From positions 32,001 to 96,000 of IMG/VR virus record IMGVR_UViG_3300036828_000667: a stretch of DNA of 64,000 nucleotides. One strand, written 5' to 3'. Below the pieces are notes generated by a model. That model made no database searches. It saw only the letters and a list, made by a program, of their open reading frames with translations, and had not been told where the DNA came from. Position numbers and translations under genes: made by a program. The DNA is from a virus. Of the stretch, positions 8,181 to 33,996 are shown piece by piece. How positions within the stretch are numbered: the first letter of the stretch is position 1; each line of letters starts with the position of its first letter.

Positions 8181-8229
8181 GTCTATCCCATCCGAACCAG
8201 TCCAATCCTATCCTATGCACACCGCACAG
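8181..8229 (+). ncRNA. Pentamer-code unit, stand-alone
   Basis: GTCTA TCCCA TCCGA ACCAG TCCAA TCCTA TCCTA TGCAC ACCGC ACAG; TTGACT(8148)-N18-TACGTG(8172); hairpin follows. Confidence 0.75.
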
Positions 8230-8264: not shown

Positions 8265-8476
8265 CAATCAGTGTCATAACCATCTGCGCTATAGTAGTTA
8301 TTTTCGTGGTACGGACACTCTTCTCTCATGAGAGCTAAGCAACGGCGAATAGATGCACTGCTTGTCCCATAGGACTCAACCACGTGGTCGCACCTTGAAC
8401 AAGTAACCTTGACACTGGGAACTTCCCCGTGATCACCTTCCAATTCGATTTCATCTATGGTACATTTTACCTTCAT
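8264..8476 (-). CDS. Hypothetical Cys-containing protein
   Basis: CSRC and RRCL..MREECP motifs. Confidence 0.5.
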   Translation of the reverse strand: MKVKCTIDEIELEGDHGEVPSVKVTCSRCDHVVESYGTSSASIRRCLALMREECPYHENNYYSADGYDTD

Positions 8477-15183: not shown

Positions 15184-15391
15184 AAAAGTATGGTGCGGTG
15201 TGCAGCGGTTAGGCATGGGATGGGCGGGCTGGCGACGGCGAGGCACGGGTTGCATTGGTGTGGGTTGGTAGGATAGAGGACAAAGGACCAGAAGATTAGA
15301 TATCCTCTGATCCTTTGAACAGATGTGCGGTTTGGTATGCTGTGGGCCGGCACGGCTGGGGGTGGCGCGGGAAGGCTTGGCATGGCTTGCA
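15184..15391 (-). ncRNA. Two tandem pentamer-code units (15321-15391, 15184-15273) separated by a hairpin (15281-15317)
   Basis: NN-GGN/GCN periodicity on + strand; promoter TTGACT(15426-21)-N17-TAGTCT(15403-15398) on minus strand; 16-bp stem with two G.U pairs on minus strand. Confidence 0.78.
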
Positions 15392-15433
15392 CCAAAAAGA
15401 CTACTACCAAACTTACCGCTAGTCAACCACTAT

Positions 15434-15847
15434 TTACCTGATACGCTGCACTAAGCAACCTTCCGATTTTGCCTGCCACGTCCCACACCACTGGCCAGCT
15501 TCAACAGGTCGCAAGATCCACTTTCGTGAATATTCCCAGATCGGAACGACCTTTTTTTCCATGACCTTCTGGCCGTTCTCGTCTAAGACGAGTTTGTTCT
15601 TTTCACCCCGCTTAGACCGTGAGATTTCCTGTGTCCCGACTTGCGTGGCAAATTTCATTTTGACCGCGGACACAGCTGAACCCAAAGTTTTCATGGGATC
15701 GGGCATCTTCTCGGTCTTAGCTGCGAAGAAGCTCTGTCCGACGCCCAATTTATCAAGAGGATATTTGGCGACCCCATTACGGTTACCACGTTTCGACTTC
15801 GGCATTTCCACCGCGTCGATGATTTCAAACGTCACTTGCTCTTCCAT
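15434..15847 (-). CDS. Small basic putative DNA-binding protein
   Basis: 'KYPLDKLGVGQSFF' motif common in small phage proteins; Lys-rich. Confidence 0.5.
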   Translation of the reverse strand: MEEQVTFEIIDAVEMPKSKRGNRNGVAKYPLDKLGVGQSFFAAKTEKMPDPMKTLGSAVSAVKMKFATQVGTQEISRSKRGEKNKLVLDENGQKVMEKKVVPIWEYSRKWILRPVEAGQWCGTWQAKSEGCLVQRIR

Positions 15848-16622: not shown

Positions 16623-17387
16623 ATGTCGGACCTTGCCCCAAAGCCAGCCGTTTATCCTCAACGAGAACCCATGGAAGACGAAATATCGGGGATTGGACTT
16701 ATCCTCGATGAAGCGATTACTTTCAAGAAGGTCCAGGATGACTTGGTAAGACTTCTGTCATCAGAATGCCCAGACGCAGGCATCTGTGCTATTCTGGACA
16801 TTTCCCAGGAACTTCTCGACAAGTTCAAGGTCAAGGTCAAAAGGAAGATCCGAAAGGTCAACGTCGACTTGGGGCTCTCCGTTAGCTCCGAGAGCAACGA
16901 AAGATCATTCTGGGAATTCGTAAAAGAGACAACTGGGGATATAGACTTACTGGGATGGCCCAGCTACTATAGTTGTATGGGCTGTGTAAGGAAAGAAGCG
17001 AACTCGATAGTCCACTCAGTAGACAAATCATTCCATCGGACCAGGGAAAGCCATGCTGGTGGAAGAGGCATCTTTTTCCAACACCCAGACCTGATCACTC
17101 TGTTAAGACTGAACTTCAGAAGAAAATACCATAGCGATATAGTCAAGTATGTAATAGACAATCAACTGAACGTATTCAAGATAACATGTAAGGAAGTTGA
17201 TAGAACCACCTTATTACCACCAGATCGGGTAAAAGGTGAACCTGTATTGATCAGAAGGATTAGGTTTATTCAGGTACAGGTTTTAGAAAACCTTTTCAGT
17301 GTTATAGTCGAAGCTCGTATGCATGCCAACCAAGTCGAACGGGATAGGCTATTGGAGATCACACCTGAAAACGTGTTTATCCTATAG
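16623..17387 (+). CDS. Hypothetical protein
   Basis: 254-aa ORF. Confidence 0.55.
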   Translation: MSDLAPKPAVYPQREPMEDEISGIGLILDEAITFKKVQDDLVRLLSSECPDAGICAILDISQELLDKFKVKVKRKIRKVNVDLGLSVSSESNERSFWEFVKETTGDIDLLGWPSYYSCMGCVRKEANSIVHSVDKSFHRTRESHAGGRGIFFQHPDLITLLRLNFRRKYHSDIVKYVIDNQLNVFKITCKEVDRTTLLPPDRVKGEPVLIRRIRFIQVQVLENLFSVIVEARMHANQVERDRLLEITPENVFIL

Positions 17388-20438: not shown

Positions 20439-20711
20439 CAAAGCTTCATTACTATCATTGCAATCCATTGTCAAGAAGTCTAAAATCAAGCCTCCCGTCC
20501 TCCCCTGGCTGGAGCATAGGATGAAAAAAGGCCCATATCGCAGAAGAACCCTTGTCAGAAAATACAGGTTTCATCCCTATGAGAATTTTGAGTCAGGTAA
20601 GGGATGGAACCTTCCCCATAACAGAAAAAGGGTAAAGAAACATCATGGTCCAGCACTAAATAAACTAGGTCAATTAAGACGTTTTTGGATTACTGTTACA
20701 AGAACATACAG

Positions 20712-25195: not shown

Positions 25196-25200
25196 TCTTC

Positions 25201-25265
25201 GGCGAACCGGTCCAATCCGAACCGACCCTATCCCTACCGGACCCTTGCACAGCATACCGCACATC
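25201..25265 (+). ncRNA. Pentamer-code unit, stand-alone
   Basis: GGCGA ACCGG TCCAA TCCGA ACCGA CCCTA TCCCT ACCGG ACCCT TGCAC AGCAT ACCGC ACATC. Confidence 0.8.
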
Positions 25266-30201: not shown

Positions 30202-30531
30202 ATGGTAGAATTTGGAGCGTTCATTCGCAAAGAACGAGAGGCCAGAGATATTAGCTTACGAAAGATGGCCAAGAAGATTGGTGTAAGTGCAACCTATCTA
30301 TCACAAGTGGAACTTGATAGGTTCCCACCACCAACTGAGGATAGGGTAAAGGCTATTGCCAAGATCATTGACTGTAATCCTGACTACCTACTGGCCAAAG
30401 CTGGACGGATCTCGACCGACATTTCCGACATCATTAAACGTCGTCCGATCGAGCTTTCGATGCTTATTCGAGCCGCCAAGTACTTGAGTAACGATGACAT
30501 TGCCCAATTGATTAATGCGGCGTCAGCGTAG
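30202..30531 (+). CDS. XRE-family HTH transcriptional regulator
   Basis: 'FGAFIRKERE...SLRKMAKKIGVSATYLSQVE..R..PP'. Confidence 0.85.
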   Translation: MVEFGAFIRKEREARDISLRKMAKKIGVSATYLSQVELDRFPPPTEDRVKAIAKIIDCNPDYLLAKAGRISTDISDIIKRRPIELSMLIRAAKYLSNDDIAQLINAASA

Positions 30532-30811
30532 GAGCCTCACTGGTAAGTCTTTTAGGCCTGGAGGCCCTACCACCTGGCCTGTCCATAATTCGCGTCAGTG
30601 GGCTTCCAACAAAGAGGAGAGGGTAATGCGTTGCGATCGGTGTCAGGGAACAGGCTGGGATCGGGCAGGAGTACACCCTGTACTTGGGCCGCTCTTCGAT
30701 TGCAACCATCCGTGTACTGAATGCGGCGGGTCAGGCATCGCCCACTGTTGCGACGGCATCTGCGAACAGCCTTCAATTGACAAGTCTATAGATGACAAGC
30801 TAACATCTTGA

Positions 30812-30884
30812 CGCCTACCGTACCACTCCGACGCCAACCACACCGAGCCGGTCCATACCTTTCCAAACCAAACCACACTTTTTT
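30812..30884 (+). ncRNA. Pentamer-code unit, stand-alone
   Basis: CGCCT ACCGT ACCAC TCCGA CGCCA ACCAC ACCGA GCCGG TCCAT ACCTT TCCAA ACCAA ACCAC ACTTT TTT; TTGACA(30777)-N18-TAACAT(30801). Confidence 0.8.
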
Positions 30885-31409
30885 ATTACTACTAGATATT
30901 CAGGAAAGGCGAACATGAGAGGTTAGGTTAAACTAACTTCGTTCTTCCTTTAGCTCAGCTACAAACTTCTTAATCAGAGTTGTTAAGGTTGGAGTGTGCT
31001 TAGCTGGAAAGTTACCAGCAAGTACCTTGGCAATAGCATACCGAATTACCTTAAACTCTTCCTCAGTTAGCTCCAACGTTATCACTAGGCACCTCGCCTT
31101 TCTTTATCACGCTAACCTTACTATCATCGATCTTCAGAGTAAACCTCTTATTATCCACAACTTCTCGCCATCTATTTTCCTCAATATAAGCACAGGCTTT
31201 AAGGTAGTCCGTCAAACAAAAAACATGAGTATGTATCTGTGACCAACACGGATGCTCACGGCATAAGTGTTCAATCTTGGCGGCTAACTCCCTGAGTGGT
31301 GATTGCATACCCAACCTCCCTTTTGTGTGACCATAAAGTTACACTTAAATTGAATCTGATTCTGGGAATTGACCTGCCAAGGCTGATAGGCGAAAACTCA
31401 TATTGCAAG

Positions 31410-31479
31410 GTCGAACCGCTGCCTTGCTTGCCAAACCGGGCCAAGCCGGCGCGGACCAAACCTCCGCACACCGCACAAT
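31410..31479 (+). ncRNA. Pentamer-code unit in the leader of the Cas7-like gene
   Basis: GTCGA ACCGC TGCCT TGCTT GCCAA ACCGG GCCAA GCCGG CGCGG ACCAA ACCTC CGCAC ACCGC ACAAT; followed by a 13-bp hairpin at 31477-31514. Confidence 0.8.
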
Positions 31480-31533
31480 GGGAGTAGTCAAATGGCTTGC
31501 AGACTACTCCCATTAACACAGGAGTAAAACAAC

Positions 31534-32175
31534 ATGCTAATTTCAGTCACGATCTCCGGAATCCGACCTTTAATCCTCGACGCGTTTTCCGAGGAAGCGT
31601 TGCTTAAGGGGAAGGGAGGAAAGAGTACAGCCCAGCCCAAGGAACTGAGTCCCTTGGATCAAGCCAAGCGTAGGTTATACTATAATGGAGATGGTACCGA
31701 CGTTCCTATATTCCCAGCAGACAACCTACTCAGCTGTATCATCGCTGCCGGGCGGTTTATCAAGGTCGGGAAAAGGCAACTAACTACTCGCGACAGTACG
31801 ACAGTAACTTCATTCCTACAGATATCAGAACTATATCTTCCCATTAGGTCGATAGATGGATGGCGAGTCGACTCCAGGAGCATCGTCAACCCGTCTACAA
31901 AAGGTCGTCACATATGCTACCGTCCCATCTTTGACGACTGGGAGTTAGATTTCACGCTCGACATCGATACGAATGAAGCGAGCGACAGCTTGGTTAGACA
32001 GTTGATTGATAGAGCAGGTAGGTTTATCGGGATCGGGGTCATGCGGCCCGAAAGGAAGCGGCAGTATGGGCAATACGTGGTGCGCTGCTGGGATTGCCGT
32101 TCAGAACATGAAGAGCTTGACAACATACCAAAACTTGCTAAGAAAACTAAGACTAGATCGAAAGAACTAGTCTAA
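31534..32175 (+). CDS. Cas7/RAMP-like putative RNA-guided effector protein
   Basis: Beta1 'ISVTISGIRPLIL'; 'PIFPADNLLSCIIAAG' (RAMP P.IP...LK motif); 'RPIFDDWELDFTL'; C-terminal Gly-rich loop 'GIGVMRPERKRQYGQY'; GGAG RBS; flanked by pentamer units. Confidence 0.7.
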   Translation: MLISVTISGIRPLILDAFSEEALLKGKGGKSTAQPKELSPLDQAKRRLYYNGDGTDVPIFPADNLLSCIIAAGRFIKVGKRQLTTRDSTTVTSFLQISELYLPIRSIDGWRVDSRSIVNPSTKGRHICYRPIFDDWELDFTLDIDTNEASDSLVRQLIDRAGRFIGIGVMRPERKRQYGQYVVRCWDCRSEHEELDNIPKLAKKTKTRSKELV

Positions 32176-32186
32176 CACTGGTTCAT

Positions 32187-33422
32187 CGCGGACCGTACCG
32201 GAGCGTGCCATGCCCGTCCCCGCCGAGCCCGACCAAACCAGACCCAACCTACGCGGACCCAGCCTATCCTTAGCGTAGCACACCGCACAGTTAAGGCCAA
32301 AACCAGAAGGAAGGAGATACGGAAATGAAACCACGCATCTCCTTCCTTCAAACCCAAGTTTCGAACAATCCATGCCACTGCAAACCGCGCCAGCCCTATG
32401 CCTACCACTGTGAACCGCTCCACACCATTCTTTTATCAATTATCAAGTCAACACTCCGAACCAGACCCCGCCTTACCCAACAGCACCCCACCAAACCGGA
32501 CCGACCCACTCCAATGTGCACCTCAGCAGACCGAAGCACACCATACTTTATCAATTGCCTTCCCGACCCGAGCTATGCCCAACCGACCCGACCCACTCCG
32601 GGCCGCACCCCTCCCTCCCATCCCGCAGCACACCATACTTTATTTCATTACGACTCTCCGGCCCTACGCCAACCACACCAGCCCGGAGCGTGCCATACCG
32701 CACCATACTTTTATCATTTCAATGCGCACCGTCCCTCACCGTGCCATCTCTCACCCGACCATACCATCCCTCCCCACCTCGGCCCGGACCCCGCCGATGC
32801 AAACCACACCATACTTTATCAATTTTCAGAACCATCCCGACCGTACCAGTGCGCGCCATTCCAATGCAGCCCTCGCCTCCGCATGTCAGGCCGCCCCGAC
32901 CCATGCCGCACCAAACCACACTTTCTTTATCAACTAAGGAGAACCAGCATGACCACACATCGTCCCACATTCGAAGACTGGCAGCTAGACTTCACTTTGG
33001 ATTATAATGAAACTGAAATAGATGAAGGTACTATACGTAAGCTAATCGAAGTAGTAGCTGGAACGCACATAGGACTTGGCTCTATGCGCCCAGAACGACA
33101 TGGACCCTATGGACAGTTTAAGATCAAGGAATGGACTCCACATTCTTAGTCTTATCCATCTCTGCTTACCGTAGCCCTCATCACCGCACCCGTGAGCACC
33201 GACCCATGCCTGAGCCTACCTCAGCATACCCAACCGCAGCAACCCGGTGCGAACCAAACCACACTATTTTTTATACAATTTCAACTTACCGTCCCGGCCC
33301 GAGCCAGTCCATCGTGCGCCGACCCGTCGCTCCCCATACCGCACTATACTTTATTCATTACCAACCATGCCATACCATGCCATTCCGGAACGCTGCCCTC
33401 CGGTCCACACCACACTTTCTTT
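32187..33422 (+). repeat. Array of 10 pentamer-code units (candidate guide-RNA array)
   Basis: Units at about 32187-32289, 32369-32434, 32455-32549, 32557-32641, 32657-32712, 32723-32817, 32830-32928, 33163-33272, 33283-33352 and 33364-33422; each (NCC/NGC-NN)n, most ending in an ACCAT-ACTTT-like tail plus an AT-rich linker. Confidence 0.88.
32949..33149 (+). CDS. 66-aa mini-paralog of the C-terminal third of the Cas7-like protein
   Basis: AAGGAG RBS; MTTHRPTFEDWQLDFTLDYNETEIDEGTIRKLIEVVAGTHIGLGSMRPERHGPYGQFKIKEW aligns with RPIFDDWELDFTLDIDTNEASDSLVRQLIDRAGRFIGIGVMRPERKRQYGQYVVRCW. Confidence 0.75.
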   Translation: MTTHRPTFEDWQLDFTLDYNETEIDEGTIRKLIEVVAGTHIGLGSMRPERHGPYGQFKIKEWTPHS

Positions 33423-33436
33423 AGGAGTTTAACCAG

Positions 33437-33682
33437 ATGGCAAAGGTAACTGGTATTGACGGTAAAAGCTTTATCAAAGGTCAACGTTTTGGTAAGCTAG
33501 TTGCGGTACGTCCACTAGGCTGGAGTAGTGACCGCAGCTGGTGTTGGCTATGTAAGTGTGATTGCGGCAATGAGACTATCTTAAGTGCTAACAGACTTCG
33601 AAGTGGTGAAGTTCAAGCTTGTGGATACGCTGTAACTATAAAATCAGACACAAATGAGGAACACTGTAACGGACAGATATAA
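33437..33682 (+). CDS. Truncated HNH-associated N-terminal domain
   Basis: 'GQRFGKLVAV...WLCKCDCGNE.......LRSG..QACG' with no nuclease domain. Confidence 0.55.
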   Translation: MAKVTGIDGKSFIKGQRFGKLVAVRPLGWSSDRSWCWLCKCDCGNETILSANRLRSGEVQACGYAVTIKSDTNEEHCNGQI

Positions 33683-33996
33683 TGACAAAGCCTACCATTA
33701 CTGTCAAACAGAATCCCAATGAAGGTGACGTAGCTGACTTCGTAGTTTGTCACCGTGTTTCTGTGCTACCTATCCCGTACGTGTCAGCTGAGATCCAACA
33801 TTGCTCCAGATGTAACGAAAGGATATGGGTTGCAAACACCTCTCCATCTAAGCCTCCTAAACTATGCTGGGAATGTTCAATTCCTCTAATTGCCAAAGAC
33901 GACGATACAAGAATAATGATTACCGAACGGCAACGGGCAGAGGTTCAGAAGTATATGCAACTAGTCCAGAAACTCCAGGAGAAAAATGAAAAGTGA
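33682..33996 (+). CDS. Hypothetical Zn-finger protein
   Basis: CSRC...CWEC. Confidence 0.5.
   Translation: MTKPTITVKQNPNEGDVADFVVCHRVSVLPIPYVSAEIQHCSRCNERIWVANTSPSKPPKLCWECSIPLIAKDDDTRIMITERQRAEVQKYMQLVQKLQEKNEK

Follow-up and report, generated by a model that had tools for sequence, protein, structure and literature searches.

A truncated copy of the effector gene of a VIPR (Viral Interference Programmable Repeat) system lies within the guide array of the same locus and on the same strand as the full-length vipr gene. This gene, which we call mini-vipr, encodes a 66-aa protein that corresponds to half of the RRM core of Vipr together with the G-loop, and it has probably been kept as a coding gene. 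The window analysed here is a stretch of 64,000 nucleotides (positions 32,001 to 96,000 of the 113.8-kb viral record IMGVR_UViG_3300036828_000667); coordinates refer to the window unless the record is named, and the main features are collected in Table 1. A truncated vipr gene embedded in an array is of a kind not described in the VIPR preprints, since text searches of all three (10.64898/2026.04.26.720920, 10.64898/2026.04.26.720927 and 10.64898/2026.10.15.759431, bioRxiv 2026) found no mention of truncated or fragmentary vipr copies.

Table 1. Coordinates of the features of the VIPR locus in the window.
Feature	Position	Strand	Description
Upstream vrRNA unit	31413-31472	+	12 pentamers; GCACA + hairpin tail
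vipr	31534-32175	+	Full-length 213-aa RAMP protein (AF2, Foldseek, BLASTP to SUSP1 Vipr)
vrRNA array units 1-7	32185-32917	+	NNN[C/G]C pentamers
Shine-Dalgarno of mini-vipr	32936-32941	+	AAGGAG, 7 nt ahead of ATG
mini-vipr	32949-33149	+	66-aa ORF, ATG to TAG; C-terminal strand-helix-G-loop-strand paralogue of Vipr
Codons 4-11 of mini-vipr (HRPTFEDW)	32958-32981	+	Missing from the sister allele and P0097 (in-frame deletion)
G-loop of mini-Vipr	33072-33113	+	GLGSMRPERHGPYG; aligned with resident Vipr G-loop GIGVMRPERKRQYG and SUSP1 GVGDWRP
vrRNA array units 8-10	33161-33411	+	Pentamer-periodic

The resident VIPR locus and its guide units

VIPR is a CRISPR-like, RNA-guided DNA silencer of phages, in which Vipr, a minimal RAMP protein, polymerises along the vrRNA with one protomer per 5-nt repeat (10.64898/2026.04.26.720920, 10.64898/2026.04.26.720927). 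The filament buries the constant bases of the repeats and displays the variable NN dinucleotides, which pair with double-stranded DNA with every third base skipped; codon positions 1-2 are read and the genes of rival phages are silenced (10.64898/2026.04.26.720920, 10.64898/2026.04.26.720927). In the type II Vipr of Escherichia phage SUSP1, the G-loop residues D177, W178 and R179 contact constant RNA bases, the aspartate and the aromatic residue contacting two guanines, and R138 is joined to the second constant base by a salt bridge. Helix 1 of the same protein shapes the pyrimidine pocket of the neighbouring protomer, the helical bundle holds the skipped target base, H17 lies on strand 1, and the filament is capped by a 3' pseudoknot of the vrRNA.

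The locus in the window is a VIPR system, and thus of a known kind. Its 213-aa effector was modelled with AF2 (pLDDT 83), and the best Foldseek matches of the model were the backbone subunits Csm3/Cas7 of CRISPR complexes of types III and VII (E ~2e-6, probability 1.00), in agreement with the Cas7-like label given to this protein in a preliminary description of the sequence. BLASTP aligned its C-terminal region with SUSP1 Vipr (31% identity, E 7e-10), its homologues form ~95 clusters in metagenomes, and a Pfam search returned no domain. The protein is a minimal RAMP-fold Vipr homologue with an RRM core, a G-loop and a thumb. On the flanks of its gene lie non-coding units built of 5-nt repeats in tandem, the repeats combining constant bases with variable NN letters and the units having a tail; targets are specified by the NN letters, with a 1-nt skip at codon wobble positions. 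About 1 kb before vipr lies a 109-aa ORF (30202-30531) that by eye resembles an XRE-type helix-turn-helix protein, and a solo guide unit separates the two; the ORF could be the DNA-binding vap of the locus.

Each unit holds 8-26 pentamers of the form NNN[C/G]C in the non-coding DNA flanking vipr. Over 29 units with 397 pentamers, position 5 was C in 97% and position 4 was C in 79% and G in 19%, while positions 1-2 were free. Two classes of tail were observed: GCACA followed by an 11-13-bp hairpin, as in the upstream unit (31473-31520), unit 1 (32285-32350) and the solo units, and a short hairpin-less tail of the ATACTTTATCAATT type in array units 2-10 (for example 32427-32452 and 32543-32554). 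An Rfam search over 30500-33800 gave no match, and hence no hammerhead-interspersed arrays.

The published variants of the VIPR motif are all G-based (GGY, NNNGG, YNNNG and NNNNG), and the vipr strand of SUSP1, which served as a control, bears YNNGG. In contrast, the vipr strand bears NNN[C/G]C in this locus and in three related loci, L005-L007. Repeats of this CC type were seen at 30810-33411 of the window, in solo units across the record (8184-8223, 25199-25258 and, on the minus strand, 15329-15393), and in L005, L006 and L007. A TTGAC/TTGCC box is present on the CC strand 30-48 nt upstream of the tract in 16 of 19 solo units, and GCACA with a hairpin, often then T-rich sequence, follows the solo tracts. 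Since these promoter-like boxes and terminator-like hairpins lie on the CC strand, this strand is taken to be the RNA. By these sequence signals the transcribed strand carries none of GGY, NNNGG, YNNNG or NNNNG, and the guides of the resident-Vipr clade appear to be CC-type, not GGY. Among 46 loci (45 from IMG/VR and the window), the G-loop G-V-M-R-P went with CC arrays in 4 of 4 cases and G-D-[FYW]-R-P with GG arrays in 33 of 39; five of the latter group had no array by a strict count, and the odd one, L050, has a short CC stretch. The association of CC arrays with G-V-M-R-P comes from one clade and counts as one evolutionary event. If true, CC-type guides would mean that the specificity of the constant motif has switched.

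Read as codons, the units yield peptides of phage genes well above shuffles (for example 95 versus at most 35), because the 1-nt-skip pairing rule reads codon positions 1-2. At peptide-spelling sites 83-88% of NN letters matched, against a background of 25% +/- 7-11%. Translation of the pentamer units as codon plus CC was considered and rejected, as the published 1-nt-skip pairing accounts for the matches at the peptide level. With pentamer letters 1-2 paired and one base skipped, unit 1 (32185-32284) matched the G-loop region of vipr (32026-32085) at 85% of NN letters, the upstream unit matched vipr codons 21-32 (31594-31629) at 83%, and several solo units matched neighbouring genes at 79-88%.

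Both guides flanking vipr therefore match the phage's own vipr above the target threshold of the VIPR paper (80% of NN letters), in which no self hits were reported. The mismatches of these two guides fall at Arg/Leu/Ser codon-family switches, and vipr of a sister strain, described below, shows synonymous family switches (L95 CTA>TTG, R171 CGG>AGG, R174 AGG>CGC). This combination is suggestive of recoding to escape guides in an arms race, or else of autoregulation. Solo guides were also found within a few hundred bases of a near-matching segment (79-88% of NN letters) in a gene of the same phage, as for 8184-8223 with 8288-8311 on the minus strand and 15329-15393 on the minus strand with 15626-15664; further cases lie at 16673-16757 and 20549-20608 of the record.

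A second, truncated Vipr encoded in the array

The mini-gene is placed 3' of vipr, between guide unit 7 (32833-32917) and unit 8 (33161-33260). As proposed in the preliminary description, it is an ORF with its own AAGGAG ribosome binding site, which is a strong Shine-Dalgarno sequence at the spacing used by the same phage; a consensus promoter scan found none adjoining the gene. A 274-aa ORF spanning 32325-33149 was not accepted as a gene, for 208 codons at its start are C-rich array read through.

Aligned by BLASTP with residues 129-186 of resident Vipr, mini-Vipr was identical at 29 of 59 positions (49%; 69% positives; E 2e-20), and both motif pairs by which the preliminary description had matched it to the C-terminal third of the Cas7-like protein were recovered. 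On its own, mini-Vipr also matched phrog_4652 at the C-terminal end of the profile (positions 138-190 of 194, E 1.9e-9). When the 113.8-kb record of the phage was searched, it gave two matches, the full gene and mini-vipr (E 9.6e-16). The homology is beyond chance, since mini-vipr is the sole second match in its own record and the match to phrog_4652 is independent. Identity to SUSP1 Vipr was 30% over residues 134-188 of the latter (E 3e-9). A Pfam search of mini-Vipr gave no domain (best match E 0.15), and its sole family match was the Vipr family.

Mini-Vipr is diverged with an open frame and keeps the conserved motifs, as had been claimed: in a 22-sequence family alignment it retains 11 of the 11 invariant columns of the region (R, P, W, F, G, G, R, P, R, G, W). 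The G-loop and RP motif are represented in the window's protein by R5-P6, G42, G44, R47-P48, R50 and G55, and the hydrophobic core of the parent fold is kept at F8, W11, L13, F15, L17, L32, I33, I41, L43, F57, I59 and W62. By alignment, mini-Vipr has the RP arginine (equivalent to SUSP1 R138), the G-loop (D177-R179), helix 2 and the last strand, and is without strand 1, helix 1, the greater part of the thumb (including the thumb hairpin) and the helical bundle, parts required for forming the pocket of the next protomer and for holding target DNA. With homology covering only residues 129-186 of 213, it falls short of the complete RAMP fold of which one protomer sits on each repeat. An AF2 model of the 66-aa chain alone contained only a helix (residues 26-41) and no strands (pLDDT 72), and mini-Vipr is therefore predicted to need a partner to fold like its parent. 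Nor does it resemble the vap products encoded beside vipr (vap1-6), which are predicted DNA-binding (wHTH/HTH) or nuclease/helicase proteins.

Mini-Vipr thus shares with SUSP1 Vipr the RP arginine and the G-loop stretch, the holders of the constant RNA bases, but is about one third of its length, has S-M-R rather than D-W-R in the G-loop, and is encoded inside a pentamer-repeat guide array beside a full-length vipr. With the resident Vipr clade (G-V-M-R-P; P0001-P0090 and L005-L007) it has in common phrog_4652 and the clade-specific methionine of the G-loop, where its S/T-M (against V-M in the clade) is of the CC-clade type, and it shares strand and locus with resident vipr. Unlike resident Vipr, it is truncated (49% identity), lies outside the core clade, and shows a pN/pS of 0.2-0.3 as against 0.014.

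Sister allele, selection and origin

An exhaustive profile-free search detected a 56-aa protein, P0097, on a 963-bp soil contig from a third sample. It was 88% identical to mini-Vipr, with the same MTT start and ...KEWTPHS end, and differed by an 8-codon and two 1-codon deletions, all in frame. Two soil metagenome runs contained the window's mini-vipr allele and, at ~0.3x the depth of the latter, a sister allele. The sister contig covers a unit tail as far as 32711, continues with 35 unalignable letters, GTAGACTGTAGAGAAAGGAAAACAGTATGACTACC, and then passes straight into 32982, the joint reading ATGACTACC directly ahead of 32982; units 6 and 7 are absent before its mini-gene, which is preceded by a different array unit. 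Its start region, AAGGAA-N7-ATG ACT ACC followed by CAG CTA GAC, encodes MTT-QLDF..., as in P0097. The allele keeps the start codon, residues 1-3 (their codons differing synonymously), a Shine-Dalgarno sequence, the stop and the frame. The indels of the sister allele measure 24 nt and 3 nt, and P0097 has an additional one of 3 nt, all of them in frame; loss of HRPTFEDW removes three family-invariant residues (R5-P6 and W). Because variant vipr contigs were present at the same relative depth as the sister mini-allele, this allele represents a sister strain and not a second copy in one genome. In run X2, one contig joint (32820 to 33249) would drop unit 7, the mini-gene and most of unit 8, and another (33154 to 33280) unit 8 alone; these may be assembly artefacts, as their anchors are just 22 and 29 nt long and lie in repeated tails.

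Conservation in relatives and dN/dS had been named in the preliminary description as checks on the gene. The sister strain retains it in frame with its own Shine-Dalgarno sequence, rather than lacking or frameshifting it, and substitutions are biased to synonymous sites. Between 32982 and 33119, 6 synonymous and 4-6 non-synonymous changes occur among the differences listed, giving a pN/pS of 0.20-0.31 (binomial p 0.014-0.04 against neutrality), with small counts drawn from the best-supported differences of short contigs and two or three differences outside that list. The replacements are conservative (I/V, G/A, V/A, S/T, E/Q). For vipr, 21 of the 22 differences listed were synonymous (pN/pS 0.014), and mini-vipr evolves faster than vipr by Fisher's test on these small counts (p 0.004-0.024). 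We favour the interpretation, suggested by P0097, the sister allele, these substitution patterns and the retained hydrophobic core taken together, that mini-vipr is translated and under purifying selection much weaker than that on vipr.

A tree built from 63 C-terminal columns joined the two mini alleles with 99/97 support on a long stem. The pair branched outside the 99/95-supported core clade that holds resident Vipr, among unresolved branches close to the base of the clade that shares this G-loop type, and the closest full-length relatives found anywhere were only ~50% identical. This position outside the resident's core clade, together with the low identity to full-length relatives, argues that mini-vipr is not a recent tandem duplicate. 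The tree points to descent from a distant vipr lineage, or to fast evolution after truncation.

The gene is lineage-specific: tblastn over 58 + 80 related IMG/VR loci with their flanks found no other internal C-terminal vipr fragment, which places mini-vipr in 1 of ~139 loci, and the close relatives L005-L007, whose G-loop is of the same type and whose CC arrays are tail-less, are without it. The DNA of P0097 was not found in viral or metagenome contigs searched with the single protein and the mini alignment. Genome contigs searched with the clade alignment gave no match, so no host or prophage copies are known, and 50,697 GenBank phage records gave none by blastn or tblastn. A word-indexed search for relatives of 36-116 aa returned only the query itself.

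Several candidates for further short or second Viprs were rejected. P0159, P0167 and P0195, which start with MRHRPR, were treated as truncated gene calls and not as independent mini-Viprs: P0159 falls in the same 90% cluster as a 206-aa protein, most short C-terminal Vipr-like proteins of this kind come from contigs under 1 kb, and the 80 loci fetched with P0167 all held full-length genes but two, which were cut at contig ends. An apparent second vipr fragment in L029 proved to be part of a distinct 286-aa RAMP-like protein. The latter (5500-6360 of L029) has a C-terminal G-loop of RAMP-like type (GIGEWRNEKSGMFG) and is a possible second, larger Vipr-like subunit; a GG-type vipr and array lie 1.4 kb upstream of it. 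Two full-length vipr loci, L027 and L031, were also seen ~37 kb apart on one 52-kb viral contig, IMGVR_UViG_3300021475_000019.

Possible roles of mini-Vipr

Since the sister strain keeps the gene in frame, mini-Vipr is probably functional, as an accessory protein or as an inhibitor. Our best explanation, put forward tentatively, is that mini-vipr is a selectively maintained truncated-Vipr gene whose product may compete with or modulate Vipr-vrRNA filaments; our confidence that mini-Vipr acts on VIPR ribonucleoproteins is likewise a little short of even. The gene lies on the array strand, and would hence be on the array transcript. The G-loop half could bind CC-type vrRNA repeats at their constant part, or else an exposed filament end, and such binding would block or limit polymerisation of Vipr. 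Gripping the constant bases or docked on the filament end, mini-Vipr would be unable to extend the filament or to hold DNA, and a grip without propagation or DNA holding would amount to the design of a classical competitor. The most likely target would be the VIPR complexes of rival phages; alternatively, mini-Vipr may act as a brake on the phage's own. A gene for conflict or an accessory function fits better than a core subunit, because of the fast evolution, the indels and the presence in 1 of ~139 loci. On the individual roles we are more cautious: a modulator or inhibitor of filament assembly, most likely directed against rival CC-type complexes, is possible but doubtful, and a cap or regulator of the own complex is unlikely.

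Mini-vipr might instead be a non-functional remnant, left after recombination between unit tails had merged another VIPR locus (a second or a foreign one) into the array, with the 5' two-thirds of vipr lost and the 3' third undecayed. The start codon and Shine-Dalgarno sequence would then derive from a junction between array end and gene start, and the tail-SD-AACCAG-ATG junction before the mini-gene does resemble the array-end junction before the next gene (33415-33439). However, the start, MTT and Shine-Dalgarno sequence are kept in the sister allele in spite of the unalignable 35 nt upstream and the altered array. The eight codons with invariant R, P and W that the sister allele has lost could be a sign of decay, yet each of the independent indels, two or three in number, has a length divisible by three, no stops have arisen, and the window's allele retains every invariant and core hydrophobic residue. 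The rarity of the gene (1 of ~139 loci), a constraint ~15-fold weaker than that on vipr, a monomer without a predicted sheet, and a deep long branch that could mean relaxed evolution are consistent with a remnant; the non-synonymous changes are nevertheless significantly below neutral expectation (p 0.014-0.04). A mere remnant is disfavoured, and we regard it as rather improbable. Of the earlier suggestion that the ORF is what remains of a second locus merged by recombination, origin from a distant or foreign vipr fits the tree, and the loss of function does not find the same support.

A less probable alternative is that mini-Vipr is an obligatory extra subunit of its own complex, a protein cap at the filament end that replaces the SUSP1-type RNA pseudoknot and is an early analogue of Cas5/Cas6-type RAMPs. 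The array units indeed have short, hairpin-less ATACTTTATCAATT-type tails, as against GCACA and a hairpin on solo units, whereas the SUSP1 cap is a 3' pseudoknot; L005-L007, however, combine the same G-loop type and tail-less CC arrays with no mini-gene. Mini-Vipr retains the G-loop type of its clade (S/T-M versus V-M), but it evolves much faster than its supposed partner Vipr, and the sister allele has dropped the RP..W strand. Very improbable, in our estimate, is a role at the level of DNA, in which the mini-gene would be a decoy or extra site for guides against the G-loop region of vipr, or a gene-conversion donor that recodes the 3' end of vipr. Guides here and in published systems aim near the ends of vipr genes, and a synonymous Leu family switch (CTA>TTG) separates the alleles. 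The phage's own unit 1 matches the mini-gene G-loop at 72% of NN letters, its second-best site in the record and ~6.7 SD above background, but this is under the paper's 80% target threshold and homology alone explains the match. Moreover, a single-copy decoy would be unable to shield the real gene from binding, and the conserved Shine-Dalgarno sequence, start codon, frame and synonymous bias would be left unexplained.

The selectively maintained truncated Vipr that we prefer has a counterpart in CRISPR biology. The Cas11 small subunits of class 1 systems, which are helical-bundle domains, are reportedly translated from the 3' part of cas8 genes by initiation within the gene itself. Like Cas11, mini-Vipr would be translated separately, as the C-terminal part of a larger effector protein, and would join or modulate the ribonucleoprotein of that effector. 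Unlike Cas11, it is encoded by a separate, diverged gene copy and comprises half of an RRM core.

Another comparison is with solo vrRNAs, which act as anti-VIPR agents, and with guides against the vipr of rivals; these known counter-measures to VIPR are RNA-based (10.64898/2026.10.15.759431). In both cases parts of VIPR serve as weapons and as targets in conflict between phages, and two guides in the present locus spell vipr peptides. Solo vrRNAs are RNAs, whereas a fragment of the Vipr protein used as an inhibitor would constitute a new layer. That mini-Vipr is a protein anti-VIPR, derived from a rival-type Vipr and poisoning the complexes of rivals, or else the first specialised non-polymerising RAMP on a Vipr filament, is conceivable, though we would not rate it as likely.

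VIPR has been proposed as the viral ancestor of CRISPR RAMPs (2026 VIPR preprints). Even if it is only a remnant, the mini-gene documents recombination between VIPR loci. If mini-Vipr is a maintained Vipr fragment, it would be the first protein inhibitor or regulator of VIPR built from the effector itself. Alternatively, it would be the first specialised accessory RAMP, with a bearing on how single-protein filaments gave way to multi-subunit CRISPR effectors, and a non-polymerising RAMP on the Vipr filament would represent a step towards heteromeric Cas5/6/7 complexes.
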